A stretch of DNA of 64,000 bases from an uncultured Candidatus Saccharibacteria bacterium (lineage in GTDB: Bacteria > Patescibacteriota > Doudnabacteria > UBA920). The notes under the pieces were generated by a model that searched no databases, was not told the DNA's origin, and saw nothing but the letters and a program-made list of their open reading frames with translations. The stretch lies in the NCBI GenBank assembly GCA_964631145.1, contig CAZVXT010000001.1, positions 457,237-521,236 on the forward strand, read 5' to 3'. Positions 4,285 to 17,022 of this stretch are shown here, in pieces; within the stretch, counting starts at the first letter, position 1, and every line of letters begins with the position of its first letter. The translations under genes were made by a program, and so were the position numbers.

Positions 4285-7200
4285 ATGCAACAAATAATCG
4301 TTAAGTTTTTGCTTAATGCAAAGCTTAAAATAAAAGGACTCTCAGCCTCAGTGTGTCCGAGTGGTAAGGACATGGTTTTTACCACAGCTTCAGTGATTTC
4401 TGGTGTTTCTTTGGTTTTGTCTACTTTTGTGCCTGTAACAGCAAGTGCTGCAGCGCAAAGCATTAAGACCACAAATGCAAATTGTGTGGCAGTTAATATT
4501 AACCAATACTCAACCGGTGATTTTGTTTGGGTTGATGTAAATGGTTTTGACCCAAATACTGTATATGCTTGGTCTATTACTGGACAGCCAGGATCTGCTG
4601 ATCCTAGCACAATTGTCGCTTCTGGTAACGCAACTACAGATGTAAACGGAGAGCTATGTTTTAATACCAACTATGATGTAAAGTCTGATGATAGTGGTGT
4701 ATATAAAGTAGCTTTTGATAATAAGAATGATAACTATACAGTCCGCTCAATTGTGCCGGATCCTGTACAGTGTTTTGCTGCCCCTGTTACAGTTGTAACT
4801 CCAAGTAATACTCAAGGTTGGAATACTGCAGATACCCGATCTAATGGTTCTGTAACTTATGTAAATGATGCTACAAGCCCAGCTCCGACCGGTGCATTGA
4901 GTTTAGTTACTGGCGCTGCTACAGGAAGCCCGCTTCAAGATAAAGCTCAGTATATGCACGCTGTAGATTCTTTGCCTTTATCCCAGGTCTCAAAACTTTG
5001 TTATTATACAAAGCAAAATAGCGCTTCTTTTGCTGATGGTGCCCCTTCTTATCAGTTAGTTGTTTACTTAAATGGCGGTACTTCTGGCTTTACTACTTTT
5101 GTATATGAACCTTATAATAATGGTTTTCATATTAACCAAGGAACATGGCAATCTTGGGATGTTTCTGCAGGTTCAATGTGGTCGTCAAAGTCAGTCACTT
5201 GTAGCAATGGTTCTGTGATAGCTGGTGGTGGGGGAGCCCCATTTTATACTCTTTCTCAAATAACTACTATGTGTCCTGATGCAGTTGTAGCGGGTTTTGG
5301 TGTTAATGTAGGCTCAAATAATCCTAATTGGGATACAGAAGTAGATTATGTTCAGTTTAATAACAATTTATATAATTTTGAATTAGACCCTGTATTAACT
5401 TCTAATGTAAAAGTTTGTAAAGTTGATAGTAACAAAAACCCTCTATCTGGTTGGGATGTGTTTTTGAAAGGGGATTTGATAGAGACTGTAAATGTAGATT
5501 CTAATGCTTCTACAGGTGCTAATTCTGTTAATGCTTTAGAAGCAGGTAAAAAATATGTTGTAGAAGTAACTGGTACATGGCAGAACCGTGGTTTTGAAAC
5601 CGTTGATGCTAGTTTTACCACACCTGACTCATGGACAACTGTTTTAGACGCTCCTCAGGGTGGTTATCCTGATAATCTGTTGGAATTACAAGTAAATAAC
5701 AATTTTGTTAATTGGGGACCTTATAGTTTAGCTCATAAATACAGCTATATCTACACTGGTGGTGGAGCATCTGCTAATTTTAGAGTATTTGATGGTGATG
5801 TGGATACCAATACAGTTAATTCTAGTTGGTATGGAGATAACGTTGGTCAGCTCCAGGTTAAAATTTATAAGGCATACGCTGGTGTAACGACTAACATTGA
5901 TGGATGCGCTACATTAACAAATGTTCCTTATGGCAACTATGTAGTTTCTGAAATTATGCAACCAGGTTGGGCTAATGTCAGTGGTAATAATGTTGAAGTT
6001 TTAATTAATAAAGCTCAATCAGAATTCGTTTTAGTTAATCGTTGTACAACCGAAGCTTGTGCTCCACAGACAGTGGATCCAAAAATTCATTTTATGAAAG
6101 TTGTCTGCCAAAGTTACTCTAGTATAAACGGAAACGAAGCCGCTGATAGTTATGATCATACTCCAAATAAAAATTATACTCAGTTTGCTAATTTTACTGA
6201 AAGTGGGTTTGTAACAAATTATTTGGTAAATGGTTTTGTTGACCCTTCAGAAATTCCTGGTAAAGACTCTGGTTGTGGTTTGGCTAGTGGTTGGGGATTT
6301 TTACTCTCAACTGATCAAGATCAGCATAATGATAATCAGATTGTAACAACTGATGCTAATGGTGTTTATACAACGAATGTTTCTAGTCTGCCGCAAGCTT
6401 TGTCTTCTGGTATCAGAAACGGAAATTTTTGGGTTAGTGAAGTAGAGAAAAAAGGGTATGATTTCGGTGCTATTAGATGCTATAATGATGCATTAAATGG
6501 CGATAACTTAGAATTAATTAATATTGGAAATTCTAATCCTGCAGACATATATTGTATTGCTTACAATGTAGAACAAATTAAGCCTTGTGTAGTTGAGCCT
6601 ATTAATGTAGTTAGCGGTACTACAACTAAATTTTTAGGTCTTAAAGAGGGTGTTGCTCCAGTAGATTTGAAAGCTCCAGGAAACTATCCAGGTGGGGTTA
6701 TGGATTTTGCTGTTGAGGTTGGACCAACTGGATTCCCTGGTGCTTGGGACGGATCTATTAATAGTCCAGACTTATCTGGTGCCAAATATGTAAGTAATAG
6801 CATTACACAGCCAACCGTTTCTGGTGGTGCTGGATTTGATGGTAGTGTAGATTCTTGGCGCTTATTTAGCCACACATTTACTGTGCCTGCTGGAGCCGTA
6901 AATATCTCTACTCCTTCATTGCATTTTGCTGCTGATAATGAAGTTGCAGTTTATTTGGACGAAACTTTAATTGGAACAAGTTCTAGCTTTAGTAATTCGA
7001 CCACTGTGGGTCCATTAAGTAGTATTAGTGTTGCTCCAGGTACTCACACTTTAAAATTTGCCGTAAAGAATTATGCATTTGACCAAACTAACAACCCTAC
7101 AGGCGTCATTTATAAATTAGATACCATTAATTACGACTGTGGTTCTACTGGCGGCGGTTCAAATAAATTTAGTATTTCCGGTAAAATTTACGAAGATTTG

Positions 7201-7878
7201 GACGAAAGCAATTCTAATAATTCTGGTGATAATCCATTAAATGGTTGGACTGTAAAGTTGGACAATGTTGCAACCGAAACTGATGAAAATACTACAACAA
7301 CTTCTGATTCTAATGGAAATTATATATTTGAAAATTTGGACGCTGGTTGTTACTTAGTTTCTGAAGTACTGCCAAGCGGTTGGGCTCAGACCGAGCCAGC
7401 AGTAGATACTCATACTTACCAAGTTGCGATTGGTGGTGTAAATAATTGTGACGCTTTTAACGGCGAATCTTCAATTATTGGATTCTTTGCAAAGACTGCT
7501 CATGCTGCAGCTGTACAACAACAGTTAGCATTTGCAGGTAATGCGAGTGGAATTAATTTTGGTAATTTTGATATCCCTTCTGGTAATGGCGGTGGTTCTG
7601 GCGGTAATGGTGGAAACGGTGGAGGTTCTGGCGGATCTGGTAGTGGTGGAACACCTCCTGCCGACCCAGGAACTCCAACAAACACCGGTAGAGTGCTAGG
7701 GGATAGTACCAATATCCCTTCTGACAGCATTTCAATTCCTACTCCAAGAGTTTTGGGAGCTGAAACAACTCTTCCACGAACAGGATTACCTCTAAACATA
7801 ATTATTTGGTTTGTTTCAACATTAGCAGCTACTTATTGTGTTTATTCTTTGATAAGCAAAAAACTTTCCAAGAATTAG
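4285..7878 (+). CDS. Giant LPXTG cell-wall-anchored surface protein (adhesin-like; Cna-B/SpaA-type fold repeats, Gly-rich stalk)
   Basis: The C-terminus is ...TTLPRTG + hydrophobic TM (LPLNIIIWFVSTLAATYCVYSLI) + basic tail SKKLSKN, a classic sortase sorting signal. Internal G.Y....E..P.GW motifs occur (YGNYVVSEIMQPGWA; GNYIFENLDAGCYLVSEVLPSGWAQTEP). A GNGGGSGGNGGNGGGSGG linker and an N-terminal signal-like hydrophobic segment are present. The alternative start ATG at 4372 is not excluded. Confidence 0.85.
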   Translation: MQQIIVKFLLNAKLKIKGLSASVCPSGKDMVFTTASVISGVSLVLSTFVPVTASAAAQSIKTTNANCVAVNINQYSTGDFVWVDVNGFDPNTVYAWSITGQPGSADPSTIVASGNATTDVNGELCFNTNYDVKSDDSGVYKVAFDNKNDNYTVRSIVPDPVQCFAAPVTVVTPSNTQGWNTADTRSNGSVTYVNDATSPAPTGALSLVTGAATGSPLQDKAQYMHAVDSLPLSQVSKLCYYTKQNSASFADGAPSYQLVVYLNGGTSGFTTFVYEPYNNGFHINQGTWQSWDVSAGSMWSSKSVTCSNGSVIAGGGGAPFYTLSQITTMCPDAVVAGFGVNVGSNNPNWDTEVDYVQFNNNLYNFELDPVLTSNVKVCKVDSNKNPLSGWDVFLKGDLIETVNVDSNASTGANSVNALEAGKKYVVEVTGTWQNRGFETVDASFTTPDSWTTVLDAPQGGYPDNLLELQVNNNFVNWGPYSLAHKYSYIYTGGGASANFRVFDGDVDTNTVNSSWYGDNVGQLQVKIYKAYAGVTTNIDGCATLTNVPYGNYVVSEIMQPGWANVSGNNVEVLINKAQSEFVLVNRCTTEACAPQTVDPKIHFMKVVCQSYSSINGNEAADSYDHTPNKNYTQFANFTESGFVTNYLVNGFVDPSEIPGKDSGCGLASGWGFLLSTDQDQHNDNQIVTTDANGVYTTNVSSLPQALSSGIRNGNFWVSEVEKKGYDFGAIRCYNDALNGDNLELINIGNSNPADIYCIAYNVEQIKPCVVEPINVVSGTTTKFLGLKEGVAPVDLKAPGNYPGGVMDFAVEVGPTGFPGAWDGSINSPDLSGAKYVSNSITQPTVSGGAGFDGSVDSWRLFSHTFTVPAGAVNISTPSLHFAADNEVAVYLDETLIGTSSSFSNSTTVGPLSSISVAPGTHTLKFAVKNYAFDQTNNPTGVIYKLDTINYDCGSTGGGSNKFSISGKIYEDLDESNSNNSGDNPLNGWTVKLDNVATETDENTTTTSDSNGNYIFENLDAGCYLVSEVLPSGWAQTEPAVDTHTYQVAIGGVNNCDAFNGESSIIGFFAKTAHAAAVQQQLAFAGNASGINFGNFDIPSGNGGGSGGNGGNGGGSGGSGSGGTPPADPGTPTNTGRVLGDSTNIPSDSISIPTPRVLGAETTLPRTGLPLNIIIWFVSTLAATYCVYSLISKKLSKN

Positions 7879-7953
7879 TTAGCTAAAGAAAAGAGCGTTC
7901 TTGCAACGCTCTTTTTAATTTTAGATCAAACTATTTGATGTTAAAATAAGGTT

Positions 7954-8547
7954 ATGAATTTTATTAGAAAATATAAAATTATATTAATTTTAATTTTGTT
8001 GTTACTAGTTATCAGCTTAGTGTTATTTTATCCTTATTTTTATGAGCGATATATTAGAAAAAATAATTTACCCAGCTCTCTTAACTTAGATAATTCTAAA
8101 CAGCAAGATAAAGATAATCCTAATGTTTTGCAAATACCAACTCTTGGGATTTCGGCACCTATTAATTATTTAGATCAGCCCGATGAAAGTTTGTTTCAAC
8201 AGTCTTTGCAAACAGGAGTGGTGCATTATCCTGGCAGTGCTAATCTTGGACAAGAAGGAAATGTATATATTTTTGGGCACTCATCTGATTATCCATTTAC
8301 AAAAGGAGAATATAAAACTGTTTTTGCAAAATTACCAGATATAAAATTAGGATCATCTATATTTTTGACAGACAAAGATGGTAAAAAGTATGAGTATCTG
8401 GTTGCTTCAACCAAAGTTGTTGCTAGCAACGATGTTTCTGTACTATCTCAAGATACAAAAGGACAGAGAATGTTAACATTGCAGACATCTTATCCTGTTG
8501 GTACAGCTTTAAAGAGGTTTGTAGTAATTTGTTACTTAAGAATATAA
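7954..8547 (+). CDS. Sortase-family transpeptidase homolog with Ser at the nucleophile position
   Basis: An N-terminal TM anchor is followed by a conserved His (NVYIFGHSSDYP). The TLXTC-equivalent motif reads MLTLQTSYP, and an Arg lies ~10 residues downstream (ALKRFVV). The gene is immediately downstream of the LPRTG protein. Confidence 0.7.
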   Translation: MNFIRKYKIILILILLLLVISLVLFYPYFYERYIRKNNLPSSLNLDNSKQQDKDNPNVLQIPTLGISAPINYLDQPDESLFQQSLQTGVVHYPGSANLGQEGNVYIFGHSSDYPFTKGEYKTVFAKLPDIKLGSSIFLTDKDGKKYEYLVASTKVVASNDVSVLSQDTKGQRMLTLQTSYPVGTALKRFVVICYLRI

Positions 8548-8774: not shown

Positions 8775-9047
8775 ATGACAAAATCAGAGACTTTGCAACA
8801 TTTGGCGGAAAAAACCGGCAAGAGCAAAAAAGAAGTAAGTGAAATGTTAGAGGCAATCGTTGCCTTAGCTTACTCTGAAACAAAGAAGAGCGGTGAATTT
8901 ACTTTACCTGGTTTAGGTAAACTTCAAAAAAAGCATCGTGATGCTCGCACTGGACGCAACCCTGCAACAGGTGCAACTATTCAAATTCCTGCAAAAACTG
9001 TCATCAAGTTCCGTATTGCAAAAGCAGCTAAAGATTCAATTCTTTAA
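8775..9047 (+). CDS. hup: DNA-binding protein HU (HU/IHF family)
   Basis: MTKSETLQHLAEKTGKSKKEVSEMLEAIV..GEFTLPGLGKLQKKHRDARTGRNPATGATIQIPAKTVIKFR is an HU-fold signature; the RBS is AAAGGAAAA. Confidence 0.9.
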   Translation: MTKSETLQHLAEKTGKSKKEVSEMLEAIVALAYSETKKSGEFTLPGLGKLQKKHRDARTGRNPATGATIQIPAKTVIKFRIAKAAKDSIL

Positions 9048-9052
9048 TTTTA

Positions 9053-9087
9053 AAAAACCAGCCCTTTTTGGGCTGGTTTTTATTTTG
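9053..9087. terminator. Bidirectional intrinsic terminator between hup (+) and the response regulator (-)
   Basis: AAAAAACCAGCCCTTTTTGGGCTGGTTTTTATTTT: an A-tract before the hairpin and a T-tract after it serve both strands. Confidence 0.7.
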
Positions 9088-9092
9088 TAATG

Positions 9093-9500
9093 TTAAGCTT
9101 TAGTGTCTGGGGCAGATAAAACTTGATTTACCTTTTTTAAAATTTCTTCGGTGTCGTAGTACGCCTTCACCATATATGCTTGAACATTTAAAGCTTTAGT
9201 CTTGAGGATATCTTTATTGCTCCATAAGTTGCTAAGCACTATAATAGGAGTAGAGGCTATTTTTTTATCAGAATGGTGCCTAACTTGTTCTAGAACTTCA
9301 AACCCATCCATTTCAGGTAACATTAAGTCTAACAGTACCAAAGCTGGACCTTCTGAGATAATTTTTTCTAAACCTTCTTTTCCATCACCAGCTTGTACAA
9401 CTGTAAAGCCATTGTTAGATAGTTTATGTGCGACGATTTCTCGCATTGCAATCTCGTCTTCTACGATCAAGATTTTTTTATTTAAGTCTTGGGTTGCCAT
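9093..9500 (-). CDS. Stand-alone CheY-like response-regulator receiver domain
   Basis: KILIVEDE....LLDLMLPEMDGFEVL...PIIVLSN...KAL carries the REC-fold acidic pocket and phospho-Asp context, and there is no output domain. Confidence 0.85.
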   Translation of the reverse strand: MATQDLNKKILIVEDEIAMREIVAHKLSNNGFTVVQAGDGKEGLEKIISEGPALVLLDLMLPEMDGFEVLEQVRHHSDKKIASTPIIVLSNLWSNKDILKTKALNVQAYMVKAYYDTEEILKKVNQVLSAPDTKA

Positions 9501-9533
9501 CTCTTTTTCAATTAATTGTATTATAACATAGGA

Positions 9534-11075
9534 ATGTCAAAAGTAATTGAGTTGAACGGTAAAGATCTTACTATTTCTCAAATAGTTCAAATAATTTCAA
9601 ACAAAAATCAAAAAATAACTATTGCTACCAAATCTAAAAACATCATTGATGCTTCTTTTGCGTTTGTCCAAAAAAGTTTAACTAAAAATGTTATCTACGG
9701 GGTAAACACAGGTTTTGGACCTATGGCGTCCCATATTTTACCAAAGGATAAGCTAATAGAATTACAATATAATCTGATTCGTAGTCATGCTACAGGCATG
9801 GGTAAGCCATTAGATCAGGATGTAGTGCTAGCAGCAATGATTGTGCGTTTAAATACTTTAGTGAAAGGTTTTTCTGGAGTCTCTATAGAATTACTAAAGA
9901 CTTTAGAGAAATTTATCAATGCTAGGATTATTCCATTTGTACCAGAGCATGGCGCTGTAGGGACTAGTGGTGATTTAATTCAATTAGCTCATATCGCATT
10001 AACTTTGATAGGGGAGGGTCAAGTTTGGTATGAGGGTAAGATCCAATCTACAGATAAAGTATTGCTTAAACTAAAAATAAAGCCTCATAAATTATTTCCT
10101 AAAGAAGGGTTATCTTTGATTAATGGTACTTCTGTAATGGCTGGTGGGGCAGCATTGGTTTGTAATGATGCTAATAAGTTAATACAGAGCTCAATTTTGA
10201 ACGGAGCTGAGTCTTTAGAGATTGTAAATTCGTATAGCGATAGCTTTGATGAAGTTCTTCATCAGCTTCGTCCTCAGCAAGGGCAATCGCAGGTTGCACA
10301 AACTTTGCGTAGTTTATTAAAAGATTCCAAACTAATTAGGCAAAGAGAAAGCTTAACTTACCAAGATAGTTTTAACCAAGGTGTTACTAAAATTGACGAT
10401 AGGGTACAAGAAGTATATTCACTTCGCTGTATACCTCAGATTGTTGGTCCCATATTAGATACTTTGCAAAAGGCAGAAAAAGTTGTAGAAGTTGAATTGA
10501 ATTCTACAACAGATAACCCTATTGTGGATGTTAAAAATAAAAGATTTTTGCATGGTGGAAATTTCCATGGGGACTATATTGCTGTGGCTATTGATCAATT
10601 AAAAGCTTCTTTGGTTAAATTGTCAATGCTATCTGAAAGAAGAATTAATTTCTTTTTAAATCAGAATATAAATAAGATTTACCCACCATTTTTAAATTTG
10701 GATACGCCGGGCTTAACATTGGCTTTGCAGGGTTTGCAGTTTGTAGCTACATCTACTACTGCTGATAATCAGTCTTTGGCTTTTCCGCATTCAGTTCATA
10801 GTATTAGTACAAACGCTGATAATCAAGATGTTGTAAGTATGGGCACTGATGCAATGTTATTTGCAAGACAAGTAGTAGAAAATTGCTACATTGTTACTGC
10901 AATTGAAAATGTTGTTCTTACTCAAGCTGTTGATGTTTTGAATTTTTCAAATAAGCTATCCAGCTCCACTAAGCAAAATTACAAAGCAGTTCGCAAGGTT
11001 TTTCCAGTTGTTATATCAGACAAACCTTTATTTAGCCTTTTGCCAAAAGTCATTGATTTATTAAAGCATGAATAA
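9534..11075 (+). CDS. MIO-dependent aromatic amino-acid ammonia-lyase (HAL/PAL/TAL family; HAL-like)
   Basis: YGVNTGFGPMAS..IRSHATGMGKPL.. ..IPFVPEHGAVGTSGDLIQLAHIALTLIGEG.. match the family. The MIO-forming triad position reads Thr-Ser-Gly rather than Ala-Ser-Gly. The six-frame ORF track begins at a TTG at 9516, but the ATG at 9534 is more plausible. Confidence 0.85.
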   Translation: MSKVIELNGKDLTISQIVQIISNKNQKITIATKSKNIIDASFAFVQKSLTKNVIYGVNTGFGPMASHILPKDKLIELQYNLIRSHATGMGKPLDQDVVLAAMIVRLNTLVKGFSGVSIELLKTLEKFINARIIPFVPEHGAVGTSGDLIQLAHIALTLIGEGQVWYEGKIQSTDKVLLKLKIKPHKLFPKEGLSLINGTSVMAGGAALVCNDANKLIQSSILNGAESLEIVNSYSDSFDEVLHQLRPQQGQSQVAQTLRSLLKDSKLIRQRESLTYQDSFNQGVTKIDDRVQEVYSLRCIPQIVGPILDTLQKAEKVVEVELNSTTDNPIVDVKNKRFLHGGNFHGDYIAVAIDQLKASLVKLSMLSERRINFFLNQNINKIYPPFLNLDTPGLTLALQGLQFVATSTTADNQSLAFPHSVHSISTNADNQDVVSMGTDAMLFARQVVENCYIVTAIENVVLTQAVDVLNFSNKLSSSTKQNYKAVRKVFPVVISDKPLFSLLPKVIDLLKHE

Positions 11076-12591
11076 TGATAATTTTAATTGGTTAGACAAA
11101 CAGTTTGATTACAAGAAGCATCTGGCAATTGAAAATCGTATTAACCAATTTGAATATAAGCAATACCAAAAAACCTTCCAATCTGTAAGCTCAGAAGAAA
11201 TAGAAAAGCATAGCTTTAAAAGAGCTTTATCATTTTTTAAGTACGTAAGTAAGAATGTGCCTGCCTATAAGGATTTTTTGAAAAAGAATAAAATAGATCC
11301 TGAAAAAATACAAAATCAAAATGATTTTAATCTAATTCCATGGACAGACAAAGAAAATTATATTTCTAAATATAGTTTAGAGGATAGAAGCTTTGGCGGA
11401 GGTAACTTAAAAAATAATTTAATAGCCATAAGTTCTGGCACCACAGGCAATCCAACCTTATGGGCTCGCAGTGCATACCAAGAGTATGAGGCTTTTGTTT
11501 TTCATCAAAAATTGTTTATTGATCAATTTGAAGTTCATAAAAAAACAACTTTAGTTTTGATTGGCTTTCCAATGGGTGTGTATGTTTCGGGGATAGCGAC
11601 ATTATTGCCTACTTGGCTATTAACCCAAAAATACCCAGGACTATCAGTGGTTAGTGTGGGAAATAACAAAGCTGATATGCTGAAGGCAATGGAGCAGCTA
11701 AGTTATTCTTATGATCAGACTATTTTGGTTGGACATCCATTTTTTTTGAAAGATGTTATAGAAACTGCCACCGCTAGAAAAATAAAGCTAGACAAATTTA
11801 ACATTAGCTTAATGTTTTGCAGTGAGGGGTTCTCTGAAGATTGGCGAGAGTATGTTTCATCTGTTTTAAATCCTAAAGGCAAGGTAAAAGCAATTAATAC
11901 CTACGGCTCATCAGAATTTTTATTAATGGCTAATGAAAATCAGAGGACCATTGATTTTAGAAAGGCTGTTAATGGCACAGCTCTTGGTGACAAGCTTTTT
12001 GGTAGTCGTAACGTGCCAAGTTTATTTGAATACAATCCTTATCATAGATATTTGCAAGAAAGCAGTAATGGGGAAATTCTTTGTACAGCAGTTAGTGGTG
12101 TTCCTCTTATAAGATATAATATGCACGATGCTGGAAAAATTATTTCTGCCCAACAGTTTAATTTGTATAGCAGGCAGTTAAATTTGAAACCGACGAAATC
12201 AAATTTACCTATAGTGGTTTTGCAAGGTAGGAGCGATTATGGTGCTGTTTTTTATGCGGCGAATATTTATCCTAATAATATCCATGCTGCATTACAACAC
12301 GATAAGTTATTTAAAAAATTAACAGGTAAGTTTTCATTAGAAAAAAAATATAAAAATAATATGGATGAAGATTTGGTCATTCATATAGAATTGCAAGACA
12401 AAGCCTTAGCAAATAAAGACCTTCTAAAATTTATTAAAGATAATGTAATAAAAACTTTATCATCTTTAAATTTAGAGTATCAATTTTTGCAAAAGAATTT
12501 GGATAAAAACATTGATCCTAAAATAAAACTCCATGCTTATCAACACCCCAAATATTTTAAGCCGGGATTAAAACCAAGATACATTGTATAA
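11068..12591 (+). CDS. PaaK-like adenylate-forming ligase (phenylacetate-CoA ligase / CoF390-synthetase-like, ANL superfamily)
   Basis: The AMP-binding P-loop SSGTTGNPT and the PaaK-like IPWTDKENY motif are present. The gene overlaps the upstream lyase by 8 nt. Confidence 0.7.
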   Translation: MNNDNFNWLDKQFDYKKHLAIENRINQFEYKQYQKTFQSVSSEEIEKHSFKRALSFFKYVSKNVPAYKDFLKKNKIDPEKIQNQNDFNLIPWTDKENYISKYSLEDRSFGGGNLKNNLIAISSGTTGNPTLWARSAYQEYEAFVFHQKLFIDQFEVHKKTTLVLIGFPMGVYVSGIATLLPTWLLTQKYPGLSVVSVGNNKADMLKAMEQLSYSYDQTILVGHPFFLKDVIETATARKIKLDKFNISLMFCSEGFSEDWREYVSSVLNPKGKVKAINTYGSSEFLLMANENQRTIDFRKAVNGTALGDKLFGSRNVPSLFEYNPYHRYLQESSNGEILCTAVSGVPLIRYNMHDAGKIISAQQFNLYSRQLNLKPTKSNLPIVVLQGRSDYGAVFYAANIYPNNIHAALQHDKLFKKLTGKFSLEKKYKNNMDEDLVIHIELQDKALANKDLLKFIKDNVIKTLSSLNLEYQFLQKNLDKNIDPKIKLHAYQHPKYFKPGLKPRYIV

Positions 12592-13795
12592 TATAAATAT
12601 GATAAAAACTCCCAAGTGGTTAAAAGTTGCTGATATAAATACAAAACCTGTTGTTCAAATTTTTGATTTGCAAAAATTATATAACCAAAGCAAAATTGAA
12701 GAGATTATAAAAATAAATAAACCACATATCATTGATACATATACAGAGCAGTTAGAAGACTTGTATTTGGTTAGGCATCCATTTTTAAAAACACAACCCG
12801 ATAAAGCGCATCTAGAATTATCAGAACATATAGGGCAAATTTCTAAAAATCCATTATGGATGCAAGGCAGTTGGATTTTTTTACCGTGGAGTAATAGTTT
12901 GATTCATTTGTTATCAAATACAGATTATTATGAGTTGCGCACTTCAAGAAATAAAAATTTAATTACAAGTTTGGAGCAAAATAAAATTAAAAAATCTAAA
13001 ATCGGAATTGCCGGTTTGAGCGTTGGTAATGCTGCCGCCGTAGGTGCCGCTTTAGAAGGCTTTCAAAATATTAGAATTGCTGATTTTGATAATTTAGCTG
13101 TAGTAAATTTAAATCGCATTCGAGCTGGTATTACAGATTTGACTGTTAATAAAAGCTATATTACCGCAAAGCAGATTTATGAAGTTGATCCATACGCAAA
13201 AGTTGATATTTATCATCAAGGTTTGAATGGTAATAAGCTAGAGCAGTTTATTAAGGATTTGGATGTTATGATTGATGAGATTGATGATGTGGAAGTAAAA
13301 ATTAAGCTTAGACAATTAGCTCAAAAATATAAAATTCCGGTAATTTCTGCTGCTGATAATGGCGATGGGGTTATTGTAGATATACAAAGATTTGATCTTA
13401 ATAATAAATATCCAATTTATCATGGAGACTTACACGAAACCAAACTTGATAGTATAGCCAAAATGGGATTTGGATCAAAGATAAAATTAATTAATGAAAT
13501 GGTGGGTATAGAGTACGTGACCGATAGGATGAAACAATCTTTGCTTGAAGTAGGGAAGAGTTTATATTCTTGGCCTCAGCTTGGCGGTGCTGCAATGATA
13601 ACTGGCGGGGTCTTGGCTTATTTAGCAAAAGGAATTGTGCTTGGGCATGATTTGCAAAGTGGTAAGTATGATTTTAACCCTGACTCAGTATTTATAAAAG
13701 CATTTAATTCTGCCAAGCAAAAAGCCCAGCGTAGAGCTGGTACAAAGAAGTTTTTGAAAACTCAATCAGAAATTTTTAATTTTAAAGTAATTTGA
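12584..13795 (+). CDS. E1-like ThiF/MoeB/MccB-family adenylyltransferase with ~130-aa N-terminal extension
   Basis: A Rossmann GxGxxG motif (KIGIAGLSVGNAAAVGAALEGF) is followed by IRIADFDNLAVVNLNRI, the E1 Asp/Arg motif. The gene overlaps the upstream ligase by 8 nt. Confidence 0.75.
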   Translation: MYNINMIKTPKWLKVADINTKPVVQIFDLQKLYNQSKIEEIIKINKPHIIDTYTEQLEDLYLVRHPFLKTQPDKAHLELSEHIGQISKNPLWMQGSWIFLPWSNSLIHLLSNTDYYELRTSRNKNLITSLEQNKIKKSKIGIAGLSVGNAAAVGAALEGFQNIRIADFDNLAVVNLNRIRAGITDLTVNKSYITAKQIYEVDPYAKVDIYHQGLNGNKLEQFIKDLDVMIDEIDDVEVKIKLRQLAQKYKIPVISAADNGDGVIVDIQRFDLNNKYPIYHGDLHETKLDSIAKMGFGSKIKLINEMVGIEYVTDRMKQSLLEVGKSLYSWPQLGGAAMITGGVLAYLAKGIVLGHDLQSGKYDFNPDSVFIKAFNSAKQKAQRRAGTKKFLKTQSEIFNFKVI

Positions 13796-14847
13796 TGATA
13801 CAAAAAGAGGTTTTAGTAAAAATTATTACAGCGGGTGGACACGCTCCTTCAGGCGATAACTGCCAGCCATGGTCTGTTCGTTTGTATGACGATGGTTTTG
13901 CTCTATACAACTTACCTGATAGAGATAACTCTTTGTATAGTTTTGGGCAACGGGCTTCTATGGTTGCTTTAGGGGCTTTTATAGAAAACTGCCTTATTAA
14001 GGCAGCTGATTTGGGTTATAAAACAGATATTAAATATTTCCCTGATGGTGAAGACAGTGATTTGGTGGCTTATTTAAATTTTGAGATAAATAACGAAAGC
14101 TACGGAAACGATTTGGCTAGATTTATAGAGCAAAGAATAACAAATCGTAAAATGTATCTAGGGCAATTAGTCGAACCTCTAAAAGTTGACAAACTTTTAC
14201 AAACTAGCGATTCATTAAAGTTGGTTAGTGAGAAGTCTATGATTAATCAGCTTGGACAAATCGCTAGTATCAATGAGAGGATTTTATTTGAAAATCAGCA
14301 GATGCATAGTTTTTTTTATAACCATATAAATTGGACCGAGGAAGAAGATATAAATAAAAAAATTGGCTTTTATTTACCGACCTTAGAAATTCCTAAAAAT
14401 AAGCAATCGGGCTTTAAGTTATTTAAGCATTGGTTGGTGTGTAAAACCTTGAATGTGTTACTAGGTTTTTCTAAGATATTAGCTAAAGAAAATTCTAAGG
14501 TATATGGCTCTGCTTCAGCAATGGGTATTATTACCATTAAAGATTATAGTAAGCTTGGGTATATTAAAGCAGGACAAGAATTTCAGCGAGTTTGGCTACA
14601 AGCGACAGAACTTGGTTTAAGCTTTCAGCCTTTAACAGGAGTGCCATTTTTAAAGCTACGAATCGATAATAATAAAGCAGGAGAGTTAAGCCTTACACAT
14701 CAAAAATTAGTTAACGATGCTTATTTATCGATACAAAAAATTTTTGAGACTAATGATAGGGTGGCGATGATGTTTCGTTTAGGTTACGCAGACTCGCCAT
14801 CCGCACATTCTCGTCGTTTTAATGTTTTAGATATAATTCAGTCATAA
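13792..14847 (+). CDS. Nitroreductase-superfamily oxidoreductase, apparently two-domain (SagB/McbC-like dehydrogenase candidate)
   Basis: The N-terminal AGGHAPSGDNCQPW matches the nitroreductase PS..N.QPW signature. At 351 aa it could hold a tandem fold. A 4-nt ATGA overlap links it to the E1-like gene. Confidence 0.7.
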   Translation: MMIQKEVLVKIITAGGHAPSGDNCQPWSVRLYDDGFALYNLPDRDNSLYSFGQRASMVALGAFIENCLIKAADLGYKTDIKYFPDGEDSDLVAYLNFEINNESYGNDLARFIEQRITNRKMYLGQLVEPLKVDKLLQTSDSLKLVSEKSMINQLGQIASINERILFENQQMHSFFYNHINWTEEEDINKKIGFYLPTLEIPKNKQSGFKLFKHWLVCKTLNVLLGFSKILAKENSKVYGSASAMGIITIKDYSKLGYIKAGQEFQRVWLQATELGLSFQPLTGVPFLKLRIDNNKAGELSLTHQKLVNDAYLSIQKIFETNDRVAMMFRLGYADSPSAHSRRFNVLDIIQS

Positions 14848-14848
14848 A

Positions 14849-16513
14849 ATGGGTATAGATTTTGGAACATTTGCAAATATTGATTTATTAATCATTGGTA
14901 TTGCGATTGCGGGTATCGCTATTTTATCAATGGTTGTGTACTTAAATAATAGAAGAAGTATTACCGCTAAGTCCTTCTTGTTTTTTGCATTGATGACAAT
15001 CGCATATGGTGTTATAAATTTTTCTTCTAGCAAATTCATAGATCATGATCTTGCATTGTGGAGTTTACGTTTAACTTTATTTAGCGCAGTATGGCATGCA
15101 TTTTCTTTGTATCAGTTATTTGTGGTGTTTCCTTTGGAGCAAACGAGTTATGATTGGAAATACAAGTATATAGCTGTTCCCGCTACTATTATTGCTTCTC
15201 TTTTAACTTTAACACCATTAGTATTCTCTGGGATTAGTCAAGAGATTGCTTTTGGGCAAGTAGCAAATCCAGAAAAAGGCCCTGGTATTGCACTATTCGG
15301 TTTAGTCGCATTTGGTTTGGTATTCTCGGCTTTGTATGTGCTGATAAATAAGGTTAGAAATTCTCAAAGTTTAGAAAAGAAACAGTTAAGCACTGTCTTA
15401 ACTGGCACAATTTTTACTATGATGTTAATTTTTGTGTTTAACTTTGTCTTGCCAGTTTTTTATAATAATACTCGTTATGTACCGCTAGCACCTCTTTATA
15501 TCCTACCGTTCATAGCTTTCACGACTTACGCTATAGTTAGACACAAACTATTGGATATTAAAATAGTTGGAACAGAAATTTTAGTATTTGTCCTAGCGGT
15601 TACATCTTTAATCGAAGTTATTATTTCACAAAATTTTGGCGTTTTGTTTTTTAGAAGCAGTGTATTTTTACTAGTTTTGGGAGTAGGTGGTTTGTTGGTT
15701 AGCAGTGTGTTTAAGGAAGTTAAACAGAGACAAGAGTTGGAGATTTTGAGTACAGATTTAGCCAAGGCAAACGAAAAACTAAAATCTTTGGATAAAGCAA
15801 GGGCAGAATTTATCTCAATCGCTAGTCATCAACTAAGAACACCTCCAGCTACAATTAAATGGTATATGTCAGCAATTTTATCTGGCGACTTTGGTAAAAT
15901 ACTCCCAGAAACTTTACCAGCATTGCAAACAGTACAAGTAACTAATGATGCTCAGATTTCTACTATTGATGACTTGCTTAATGCTTCCAGGATTGAGCGA
16001 GGTAAGCTGGAATTCTTTTTTCAACCAGGCGTGATCGAGCCAATAGTACAAAATCTGGTTAATCAATTACAACCTTTGGCACAAATGAAAAAGTTGCGCA
16101 TTAATTATCAGCCACCAAAGACCACAATACCAGAGTTTATTATGGATCAGGAGAAGATTCGCCAGGTAATAAATAATATGATTGATAATGCTATTAAATA
16201 CACTAAACAAGGGGATATTGATGTAAAATTGGTTCGAAATAGAGACGGGGTTACGCTTAGTGTTTCTGACCAGGGCAAAGGTATTAGACAAGAGGATGTG
16301 AAGAAGTTATTTGCTAAATACTCCAGAGGACAAGATTCTGCTACTCAAGCAACTGGGCTAGGTTTGGGGATGTATGTTGCTAAGGTTATAGTAGAGCAAC
16401 ATAATGGAAAGATTTGGGCAGAGAGTGCGGGGCTCGATAAAGGTTCTACTTTTTCTTTCTTTATTCCATCAAAGAATAATTTAAAAGCAACTACTTTTGA
16501 TTTAACTAAGTAG
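14849..16513 (+). CDS. Sensor histidine kinase with ~7-8 N-terminal TM helices
   Basis: H-box ASHQLRTPP, N-box NMIDNAIKYT and G-box GLGLGMYVAKVIVEQHNGKIW are present. The start is 2 nt after the nitroreductase stop. Confidence 0.85.
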   Translation: MGIDFGTFANIDLLIIGIAIAGIAILSMVVYLNNRRSITAKSFLFFALMTIAYGVINFSSSKFIDHDLALWSLRLTLFSAVWHAFSLYQLFVVFPLEQTSYDWKYKYIAVPATIIASLLTLTPLVFSGISQEIAFGQVANPEKGPGIALFGLVAFGLVFSALYVLINKVRNSQSLEKKQLSTVLTGTIFTMMLIFVFNFVLPVFYNNTRYVPLAPLYILPFIAFTTYAIVRHKLLDIKIVGTEILVFVLAVTSLIEVIISQNFGVLFFRSSVFLLVLGVGGLLVSSVFKEVKQRQELEILSTDLAKANEKLKSLDKARAEFISIASHQLRTPPATIKWYMSAILSGDFGKILPETLPALQTVQVTNDAQISTIDDLLNASRIERGKLEFFFQPGVIEPIVQNLVNQLQPLAQMKKLRINYQPPKTTIPEFIMDQEKIRQVINNMIDNAIKYTKQGDIDVKLVRNRDGVTLSVSDQGKGIRQEDVKKLFAKYSRGQDSATQATGLGLGMYVAKVIVEQHNGKIWAESAGLDKGSTFSFFIPSKNNLKATTFDLTK

Positions 16514-16572
16514 GCTTAGTGTGGTATAATACATAGGTAAGAGTAATTTGACCGCTTGAAATAATTTGGCGA

Positions 16573-17022
16573 ATGCAAATTATGATCATAAACAAACAAA
16601 TCGAAATCAAAACTCAAAAACAGTTTGAATTAGTTGATATTACTCAGCTTATAAATGCAGAAGTTACTTCTAGCAATGTTAAAGATGGTTTGGTTAGTAT
16701 TTTTTGTCCTCATACCACTGCGGCAATTAGGCTAAATCATAATGAACCATTGCTAATACAGGATATTATGCATATGATTTATCGATTGGTTCCTATCGAC
16801 CAAAATTACAATCACGATTTGTTTGAGCTTCGTAGCGGAGTTGATGTAAATGAAAGAACTAATGGCCACGCTCATGTAAAAGCATTTTTACTTGGATCTT
16901 CATCGGAATCGGTTCCTATAAAAGATGGCAAGCTTATTTTAGGAGACAGGCAAAGTGTGTTTTTTGTTGAGCTCGATGGCGGGAGAGATAGAAATTTTAA
17001 TATTACCATTATTGGAGAATAA
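16573..17022 (+). CDS. YjbQ/UPF0047-family protein (secondary thiamine-phosphate synthase-like)
   Basis: ..FCPHTTAAIRLNHNEP.. ..NGHAHVKAFLLGSS..PIKDGKLILGDRQSVFFVELDGGRDR match the family. Confidence 0.8.
   Translation: MQIMIINKQIEIKTQKQFELVDITQLINAEVTSSNVKDGLVSIFCPHTTAAIRLNHNEPLLIQDIMHMIYRLVPIDQNYNHDLFELRSGVDVNERTNGHAHVKAFLLGSSSESVPIKDGKLILGDRQSVFFVELDGGRDRNFNITIIGE

Follow-up and report, generated by a model that had tools for sequence, protein, structure and literature searches.

A Patescibacterial gene cassette linking a putative oxazolone synthase to an ammonia-lyase, a PaaK-fold ligase and a seven-transmembrane histidine kinase

Gene content of the cassette

Within a 64,000-nucleotide stretch of DNA from an uncultured Candidatus Saccharibacteria bacterium (GTDB lineage Patescibacteriota; Doudnabacteria; contig CAZVXT010000001.1, positions 457,237 to 521,236 of the forward strand; hereafter the window), we examined a compact cassette of six genes. 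Five of them constitute a plus-strand operon at 9534-16513, and the sixth, encoding a stand-alone receiver, is transcribed divergently at 9093-9500. In order, the operon encodes a 4-methylideneimidazole-5-one (MIO) aromatic ammonia-lyase, a PaaK-like adenylate-forming ligase, a ThiF/E1-like protein, a nitroreductase-fold protein of the FDO type and a sensor histidine kinase. An earlier annotation made from the nucleotide sequence alone (the original prediction) had described this arrangement; all six open reading frames (ORFs) lie where it had placed them, the motifs GAVGTSGDL, SSGTTGNPT and APSGDNCQPW are all present in the window proteins, and the gene identities that it assigned were upheld by Pfam and NCBIfam matches. 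By homology, the ThiF and nitroreductase proteins together are predicted to form a split oxazolone synthase of the TrzS/OxzB/TyzBC type.

The genes are tightly coupled, with small corrections to the junctions of 8, 8, 4 and 2 nucleotides (nt) first reported. The lyase and ligase genes overlap by 8 nt (ATGAATAA). The ligase and ThiF genes overlap by 8 nt only when the TTG at 12584 is taken as the ThiF start, and are separated by a 7-nt gap when translation begins at the ATG at 12599, the start in the database gene call. The overlap between the ThiF and nitroreductase genes is 4 nt (TTG at 13792) or 1 nt (ATG at 13795), and the last junction, between nitroreductase and kinase, is a 1-nt gap and not the 2 nt first given.

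The ThiF/E1-like protein (12599-13795, plus strand, 398 amino acids, alternative TTG start at 12584) would serve as the ATP-dependent cyclase half of the synthase, and the tandem nitroreductase-fold oxidase (13795-14847, plus strand, 350 amino acids in a single chain, FDO-A type, alternative TTG start at 13792) as its desaturase half. Pfam matched ThiF in the E1-like protein at 77 bits. Against the NCBIfam model PRK07877 ('Rv1355c family'), the ThiF protein covered profile positions 8-351 of 722 with 308.6 bits, and the nitroreductase positions 373-714 with 187.0 bits. When these two separate polypeptides were joined in silico, the fusion scored 504.9 bits over positions 8-714 of 722, relative to a cutoff of 476. 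Natural ThiF-FDO fusions are found in three relatives (L006, L022 and L032; fetched loci are denoted by L numbers), and on the same model L032 reached 500.1 bits and L006 474.2 bits, just under the cutoff. The nitroreductase also matched PRK14851 (192 bits) and, below the cutoff of 199, the Acg family (130 bits), and the only solved relative detected by sequence was Acg itself (PDB 2ymv). These matches place it in the FDO/Acg type, and not with the NfsB-like housekeeping enzymes against which the original prediction had cautioned.

Three fusions from Patescibacteria and three plasmid-encoded Rv1355c proteins (named by PGAP; Rhodococcus and Mycolicibacterium) were aligned with the window pair, and 75 columns proved invariant; identity between the window pair and the actinobacterial proteins was 25-27%. 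Conserved throughout were the ThiF adenylation residues GLSxG, D162, D164, N170, N172 and R173 (NxNR motif), K185, and E227 and D229 (IDEIDD). D229 occupies the position of ThiF D127, MoeB D130 and TrzS D217, the last equivalence being drawn by motif position and not from the M. smegmatis sequence. Invariant between the window FDO and the Rv1355c proteins were APSxxNxQPW, R114, R118, H171, W180, R328 and R341. The N-terminal extension of the E1-like protein, to which the original prediction had given some 130 residues and a possible role in peptide binding, is indeed present, at approximately 110 residues, but is collinear with the N-terminus of Rv1355c/TrzS, a small-molecule family; its invariant residues in the same alignment are W92, P96, W97, R114, R117, N118, E126 and Q127.

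Rv1355c is TrzS, for which biochemical work established cyclisation of N-acyl-Trp followed by its desaturation (PMC12856293). TyzB/TyzC of M. tuberculosis and OxzB of Pseudoalteromonas rubra carry out the same reactions with Tyr and Phe (PMC10404671, PMC12856293, bioRxiv 10.1101/2020.06.11.147165). In this chemistry an N-acyl aromatic amino acid is adenylated at its carboxylate and closed to an oxazol-5-one, and desaturation between C-alpha and C-beta (FMN, O2) then yields a 4-arylidene oxazolone (PMC10404671, PMC12856293).

Other families were considered for the E1-like protein and its partners, and rejected. A sulfur-carrier E1 of the MoeB/ThiF type scored 54-62 bits against cutoffs of 152-376, and no plausible carrier ending in Gly-Gly was found in the 64-kb window, so that the MoaD- or ThiS-type partnership raised as a caveat by the original prediction did not materialise. 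Housekeeping roles in histidine utilisation or in molybdenum cofactor or thiamin synthesis were set aside because family scores spoke against them and partner genes were absent. Anti-phage defence E1 proteins (CBASS Cap2 and others) were likewise dropped, as PADLOC E1-E2 models gave at most 38 bits, confined to the Rossmann region, and the lyase, ligase and FDO gave no matches. The E1-like protein contains no cysteines, and its orthologues show no conserved Cys, which excludes both a Zn-tetrathiolate C-protein and a thioester-forming E1. Its closest solved ThiF relative is AclA (PDB 9egb), for which neither literature searches nor the ThiF review yielded a function.

The ligase (11068-12591, plus strand, 507 amino acids) belongs to no Pfam family and forms a distinct clade, with weak NCBIfam matches to PaaK, FlxY and F390. 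It scored 65.1 bits on PaaK TIGR02155 (cutoff 646), with only the fold and the ANL motifs in common, and 45.6 bits on FlxY (cutoff 520). When its AlphaFold2 model (pLDDT 90.8) was compared with solved structures in Foldseek, the best matches were BT_0428 and PaaK1 (E ~5e-23, TM 0.65-0.77). NatL2, AjiA1 and ClxA, which we take to be CoA-independent, ester- or amide-forming PaaK-family ligases of benzoxazole pathways, also appeared among the fold matches (E ~1e-16 to 1e-14). The ANL motifs SSGTTG, TYGSSE, HD.G and GRSD and the C-terminal Lys are conserved, and homology points to an adenylation-competent PaaK-fold enzyme. The GH3 amido-synthetases were dropped as a family, given a PaaK fold and a weak GH3 match in only 3 of 36 members, although the functional analogy was retained.

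A census of 1.84 billion cluster representatives returned 429 ligase relatives at E <= 1e-30. Fusions of ligase and ThiF were found among them in both orders (ThiF-ligase in P0282, ligase-ThiF in P0309), suggesting that the two enzymes catalyse consecutive steps. In P0283, a Glu/Leu/Phe/Val-dehydrogenase is fused to ligase and ThiF; the presence of an amino-acid dehydrogenase at the position of the lyase suggests that the first enzyme deaminates an amino acid to a carboxylic acid. Variant loci with such fusions include L046 (7001-10729, dehydrogenase-ligase-ThiF, 1242 amino acids), L048 (4095-6737, ThiF-ligase, 880 amino acids) and L049 (1114-3705, ligase-ThiF, 863 amino acids). Each fusion adjoins the same family of seven-transmembrane (7TM) kinase and an alpha/beta-hydrolase, an accessory of the fusion-type variants. 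An FDO gene is nearby in L046/L047 and L048, and a bactofilin gene and a diacylglycerol-kinase-like gene come next in L046 and L048.

The lyase (9534-11075, plus strand, 513 amino acids; Lyase_aromatic PF00221, 541 bits) resembles the tyrosine ammonia-lyases (TALs) FlxA and FjTAL. Its best NCBIfam model was FlxA TAL, at 618.1 bits, and all five of the other cassette lyases tested also ranked FlxA first (537-610 bits). The original prediction had allowed that it might prove to be an ordinary HutH, a histidine ammonia-lyase (HAL), but TIGR01225 gave 460.3 bits against a cutoff of 539 and HAL motifs were absent. Identity was 44.3% to FjTAL (reference an exact match to ABQ04142.1, itself scoring 902 bits on the FlxA model) compared with 34.4% to PpHAL (reference identical to PDB 1gkm_B except for one residue, the engineered C273A site). 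All eight active-site segments are FjTAL-like (GFGPMA, LIRSHxxG, GGNFHGDYI and NxDNQDVVSMGT among them), and the HAL-specific segments GGNFHAEPV and SANQEDHVSM (with Glu414) are replaced by GGNFHGDY and NADNQDVVSM. Y55 of the catalytic Tyr loop lies within YGVNTGFG, and the MIO triad is Thr-Ser-Gly (GAVGTSGDL), invariant in 39 of 39 cassette lyases. His85 aligns with His93 of SgTAM, presumably the residue that binds the tyrosine hydroxyl, and Phe-specific AdmH reads Ala-Val there. Taken together, the window lyase is most likely a tyrosine ammonia-lyase.

Recurrence of the cassette and its signalling genes

The cassette is carried by approximately 90 fetched loci, nearly all of them labelled Patescibacteria, whose flanks differ and whose GC content ranges from 0.33 to 0.60. 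Because the same order recurs in so many independently fetched loci, we consider it to be beyond chance, and the conserved co-occurrence of the four enzyme genes anticipated by the original prediction is thereby upheld. Homologues of ThiF and of the ligase number in the hundreds, and those with a named source are almost all Patescibacteria; a ligase-alignment scan of species-representative genomes similarly returned 40 loci, all but two of which were labelled as Patescibacteria lineages. In a phmmer map of 41 non-duplicate loci, the ligase had the lyase as its direct upstream neighbour in about 39 and ThiF as its direct downstream neighbour in about 33; the FDO was present in about 33 and the kinase in about 30.

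When loci were sampled by the kinase, clear cassettes without a lyase numbered about 8, relative to about 12 with one, suggesting that the universal core consists of ligase, ThiF, FDO and 7TM kinase. At the lyase-less loci (L077, L082, L089, L091, L095, L100, L103 and L065, all in the order ligase-ThiF-FDO-kinase), the ligase is more divergent, at about 230 bits, and the acid substrate must come from elsewhere.

Beyond the six query types, the only recurrent genes were a methyltransferase, the alpha/beta-hydrolase and a receiver-PilB fusion. The SAM methyltransferase (~240 amino acids) lies between FDO and kinase in L001 (10219-10938), L017, L020, L022, L027, L033, L069, L072, L075, L078 and L080; its best NCBIfam match, 'DVU_1556 family methyltransferase', was below cutoff at 82 bits. 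For its part, the ligase weakly matches 'DVU_1553 family AMP-dependent CoA ligase'. The fused ThiF-FDO query found matches on four Nitratidesulfovibrio plasmids, and the cassette may be distantly linked to a Desulfovibrio-type cluster. No GNAT acyltransferase was found in the window operon, in the Pfam tables of relatives or among the clustered extra ORFs; the clustering drew on 13 of the 45 loci available at that stage, and for a further 52 loci scoring was limited to the window proteins and three accessories. A GNAT gene does adjoin one Streptomyces relative of ThiF. The genes that separate ThiF from nitroreductase in L015, L016, L024, L025 and L030 were non-recurrent, and were hence treated as unrelated insertions.

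Several loci depart from the common pattern in source or content. The full cassette is present in L004 and L005, from a metagenome-assembled genome (MAG) labelled Gammaproteobacteria (GC 0.35), probably through mis-binning. A MAG labelled Bryobacteraceae (L034, 7389-10464, GC 0.60), on a contig assigned to the Acidobacteriota, carries the lyase and ligase as a pair, neither ThiF nor an FDO nor a kinase lying within 9 kb, and represents either a mis-binned contig or a pair working alone outside the candidate phyla radiation (CPR). In L001 and L026 the cassette adjoins a TrmB-family regulator.

The kinase (14849-16513, plus strand, 554 amino acids) is a polytopic sensor histidine kinase with the Pfam domains HisKA_7TM, HisKA (His327) and HATPase_c; hydropathy indicates 8-9 hydrophobic segments in its N-terminal HisKA_7TM sensor. 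The receiver (9093-9500, minus strand, 135 amino acids) is CheY-like and lacks an output domain (Pfam Response_reg, 72 bits), and it has Asp58, Ser90 and Lys112. The 64-kb window contains no two-component genes besides these, and the link to a two-component system drawn by the original prediction is sound: the kinase gene is part of the operon, and the receiver gene diverges from it across a 33-nt spacer. Close receiver orthologues occupy the same divergent position in L008, L011, L038 and L058 (146-152 bits), and the closest orthologues of both proteins are from Candidatus Doudnabacteria MAGs. The sensor half of the kinase is conserved to the same degree as the catalytic half (40% versus 42% identity), with conserved polar residues N57, R74, Q179 and K238 in its membrane segments. 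When metagenome loci were retrieved by the kinase sensor domain alone, with an alignment of closely related sensors, FDO, ThiF or ligase was directly upstream of the kinase in 45 of the 50 that had enough upstream sequence. One or two extra paralogous 7TM kinases stand beside the cassette kinase in L004 (8005-9645), L042 (3951-7160) and L066 (7246-10556). Literature searches for HisKA_7TM turned it up only in censuses or reviews of histidine kinases.

In eight loci, a gene for a receiver fused to a T2SSE/PilB-type secretion ATPase (~576 amino acids) lies downstream of the kinase: L019 (14352-16470; Pfam T2SSE, 397 bits), L036, L040, L044, L067, L068, L079 and L100. Most of these also have a stand-alone receiver gene just 5' of the fusion. 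No such gene is present within the 64-kb window. The fusion is a possible non-transcriptional output tying the module to type IV pili.

The cassette is bounded on its left by a strong bidirectional intrinsic terminator at 9053-9081 (12-bp stem with 6 G-C pairs, T and A runs on both sides), which separates the HU gene (8775-9047) from the 3' end of the receiver gene and marks the edge of the module. The spacer between the receiver and lyase starts (9501-9533), read from the sequence, is only 33 nt long, so any promoters must overlap coding sequence; a promoter consensus scan was uninformative (36 sites versus 37.3 expected), and an Rfam scan of the whole window returned nothing at gathering thresholds. 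The region 16502-17022 comprises the next gene after the kinase, of the UPF0047 family (149 amino acids), and a promoter-like site of its own (TTAACT, 17 nt, TATAAT, upstream TG) that overlaps the end of the kinase gene. As no terminator was detected 3' of the kinase gene, read-through into the UPF0047 gene is possible. Just upstream of the cassette region, 4285-8547 encodes two proteins: a putative secreted protein of 1197 amino acids, whose end, LPRTG followed by a hydrophobic stretch and a basic tail, constitutes a probable sortase-type sorting signal, and then a 197-amino-acid membrane protein at the position of a candidate sortase.

A proposed pathway and its alternatives

We propose that the cassette is an oxazolone-type biosynthesis-plus-sensing module of Patescibacteria. 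To this mechanism as a whole we give an even chance, with more confidence in the enzyme family assignments and less in the amide-forming step and in the sensing of the product. The lyase would convert tyrosine to 4-coumarate, and the ligase would activate this deaminated amino acid as an acyl-AMP and use it to acylate an amino acid at its amino group. ThiF would then cyclise the N-coumaroyl amino acid, and the FDO would desaturate it, giving a conjugated 2-styryl-4-arylidene-oxazolone or a ring-opened dehydro-amino acid. The 7TM kinase would sense the product or an intermediate, signalling through single-domain receivers and, in some relatives, through the receiver fused to a PilB-type pilus ATPase. 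We assign the ligase to the place of an acyltransferase because GNAT was never present in the loci examined and because the ligase is elsewhere fused to ThiF. Such a route would require only amino acids and ATP, and no fatty acyl-CoA, and would therefore suit organisms without fatty-acid synthesis; to our knowledge, Patescibacteria are generally reported to be of this kind.

A number of observations weigh against this proposal. The enzyme roles rest on homology, and the chemistry beyond the family assignments, like the sensing, is an extrapolation from them. With regard to the lyase, its score on the FlxA model falls short of the equivalog cutoff (NF053541, 618.1 versus 700 bits), so that it is not an equivalog; its triad is Thr-Ser-Gly and not Ala-Ser-Gly; and its top solved matches are AdmH and SgTAM, leaving room for histidine or aminomutase chemistry. 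The lyase is, moreover, missing from about 40% of kinase-anchored cassettes, and coumarate therefore cannot be the universal acyl group. The closest solved relatives of the ligase are true CoA ligases, and its amide acceptor is a prediction. Characterised FDOs use O2, and many Patescibacteria are thought to be anaerobic. R540 and Q651 of TrzS (M. smegmatis numbering), known from mutagenesis, are unmapped onto the window FDO, in which the conserved Arg residues are R53, R114, R118, R328 and R341. As to signalling, the receiver gene is adjacent in only about one-third of loci, and the adjacency of the kinase equally fits mere regulation of the operon.

This last point is the basis of an alternative that we regard as possible, if on the doubtful side: the enzymes would have the roles given above, with the kinase and receiver confined to regulating the operon on an external cue such as the host, oxygen or light, and the product would have no signalling role, serving as a pigment or UV screen, as an antimicrobial, as an electrophilic acylating agent or as a component of the envelope. 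Kinases commonly adjoin the operons they control, and the TrmB-family regulator noted above in two loci is consistent with transcriptional control. N-acyl-dehydrotyrosines with antimicrobial activity exist (PMC12479983), and the authors of the TrzS study left the oxazolones' role in physiology unresolved, noting only their resemblance to signalling molecules (PMC12856293). The receiver, however, has no DNA-binding output domain, and the receiver-PilB fusions point to a non-transcriptional output. In addition, the sensor domain stands beside the enzymes in 90% of loci and is conserved as much as they are, a pattern to be expected of a ligand and its receptor, though not proof of one. In its most specific form, our proposal would make the cassette a self-contained synthase-receptor pair, with the arylidene oxazolone (or its dehydro-amino-acid form) as the cognate ligand of the kinase and with output through receivers to type IV pilus ATPases, and hence to host attachment or movement; we put this forward tentatively, as a somewhat improbable extension.

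The ligase could instead be an ordinary aryl-acid CoA ligase, as in FlxA/FlxY and in pairings of TAL with 4-coumarate:CoA ligase (4CL), releasing 4-coumaroyl-CoA, while ThiF and the FDO act on another substrate or an acyltransferase is encoded elsewhere. That its top fold matches, BT_0428 and PaaK1, are CoA ligases fits such a role, as do its weak NCBIfam matches to PaaK and the flexirubin ligase FlxY and the FlxA-like character of the lyase, FlxA being the partner of FlxY in flexirubin synthesis. We nevertheless judge it quite unlikely: the ligase falls far below the family cutoffs (65 versus 646 and 45.6 versus 520), among the additional genes looked for at the loci so surveyed, none for an acyltransferase recurs, and the direct ligase-ThiF fusions imply consecutive steps.

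The original prediction had leaned towards a ribosomally synthesised and post-translationally modified peptide (RiPP) system, akin to thiazole/oxazole-modified microcins (TOMMs) or microcin C. On that view the E1-like protein would activate a peptide C-terminus by adenylation, with the nitroreductase oxidising a heterocycle. This framing was not borne out, and we now consider it very improbable. The prediction had itself remarked on the absence of YcaO and of a precursor-peptide ORF; no YcaO appeared in the Pfam results of the window proteins or in the tables of relatives that were looked up, and a short-ORF scan found none free and no room for one, the intergenic gaps being at most 59 nt. Nor was any cassette gene listed as a protease or transporter in these Pfam tables of relatives; in L012, a Peptidase_M50 ORF lies upstream of the cassette. 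The lack of cysteines in the E1-like protein, the homology of its N-terminal extension to that of the small-molecule enzyme TrzS, with which it is collinear, and the FDO/Acg type of the nitroreductase all argue in the same direction. Least probable of all is that the coumaroyl or oxazolone group is a chromophore attached to the 7TM kinase, making it a photoreceptor comparable to photoactive yellow protein (PYP): a TAL with an aryl-acid ligase is the route to the PYP chromophore, the predicted product is highly conjugated and electrophilic, and polar residues are conserved in the kinase membrane segments (N57, R74, Q179, K238), but many cassettes lack the lyase, the organisms that carry the cassette are mostly of groundwater or the subsurface, and the sensor has neither a PAS/PYP domain nor a conserved Cys.

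Relation to known systems

The full arrangement appears to be undescribed, in keeping with the original prediction, which did not recognise the four-enzyme combination as a known pathway: literature searches for that combination found nothing relevant, and the papers on the oxazolone-synthase family that were searched for each of these terms made no mention of an ammonia-lyase, a PaaK or ligase partner, Patescibacteria or a histidine kinase, apart from one reference-list title containing the word ligase. What the prediction had overlooked is that the ThiF/nitroreductase pair within it is a characterised oxazolone synthase, so that the enzyme core is already known as the TrzS/OxzB family. Oxazolone (azlactone) natural products of ThiF-FDO enzymes date only from 2021-2025, and a 2025 review named OxzB as the sole ThiF-like enzyme with a known small-molecule substrate. 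The cassette would extend this chemistry to another bacterial radiation and to another route of substrate supply. It also offers, in the 7TM kinase found beside the enzymes in 90% of the sensor-retrieved loci, a receptor candidate for the oxazolones; if the product is indeed the ligand of the kinase, the CPR would gain its first autoinducer-type signalling system, and the oxazolones their first receptor. The genomes of Patescibacteria are very small and poor in biosynthetic clusters; these bacteria are host-dependent and probably make contact by means of type IV pili. A module that makes and senses a compound, occasionally wired to a receiver-PilB protein, is thus a plausible handle on the coordination of attachment in uncultivated CPR. 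The PaaK-clade ligase, should it prove to be an amide synthetase, and the lyase with its invariant Thr-Ser-Gly MIO triad would also be of biocatalytic interest.

Of the characterised systems, TrzAS (Rv1356c/Rv1355c; M. tuberculosis, M. smegmatis and Rhodococcus; product N-acyl tryptazolone) shares with the window pair the ThiF cyclase, the FDO and the N-terminal extension (PMC12856293). Some Patescibacterial relatives (L006, L022, L032) are fused in the manner of TrzS, whereas in the window the halves are separate genes. TrzAS depends on the GNAT acyltransferase TrzA and an acyl-CoA donor; the cassette has a PaaK-fold ligase instead, with or without the MIO lyase. Similarly, the cassette has a 7TM kinase in its operon, whereas in M. 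tuberculosis trzAS adjoins genes for the turnover of cyclic di-GMP (c-di-GMP; PMC12856293). On the plasmid of Rhodococcus sp. AQ5-07 (L052, 3013-7106), an 'Rv1355c family protein' adjoins a GGDEF-domain protein; together with the position of trzAS, this places oxazolone synthases near signalling genes in Actinobacteria as well. On Mycolicibacterium/Mycobacterium plasmids (L054, L055 and L056), the neighbours of the Rv1355c-family gene are a cytochrome P450 and a TetR regulator.

TyzACB of M. tuberculosis and OxzAB of Pseudoalteromonas rubra, which make N-acyl tyrazolone and phenazolone, follow the same logic of ThiF cyclisation and FDO desaturation (PMC10404671, bioRxiv 10.1101/2020.06.11.147165), and TyzB and TyzC are separate adjacent genes, as in the window. 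TyzB is shorter than the window ThiF protein (318 versus 398 amino acids). Both systems draw on fatty acyl-CoA through a GNAT-like acyltransferase and involve no lyase, ligase or kinase; conversely, the cassette lacks the adjacent OxzA/TyzA/TrzA GNAT by which oxazolone clusters are recognised from context.

For the remaining enzymes, parallels come from other pathways. In flexirubin synthesis (FlxA/FlxY, with FjTAL), as in the cassette, a PaaK-like ligase neighbours a TAL-type lyase, but the flexirubin polyene and type II fatty acid synthase genes are not present in the cassette. NatL2, AjiA1 and ClxA have the same fold as the window ligase and provide a precedent for PaaK-type enzymes in which an O or N nucleophile, and not CoA, receives the aryl-acyl adenylate; identity to them is 13-18%, and the window ligase is about 80 amino acids longer and structurally nearer to BT_0428 and PaaK1. 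Finally, although their chemistry is entirely different and no sequence relationship is expected, CqsA/CqsS of Vibrio and LqsA/LqsS/LqsR of Legionella resemble the cassette in gene architecture, and in that alone: in each, the synthase of a small hydrophobic molecule lies beside a multi-pass kinase, with a receiver-type regulator nearby, and it is sensing of this kind that we propose for the cassette.

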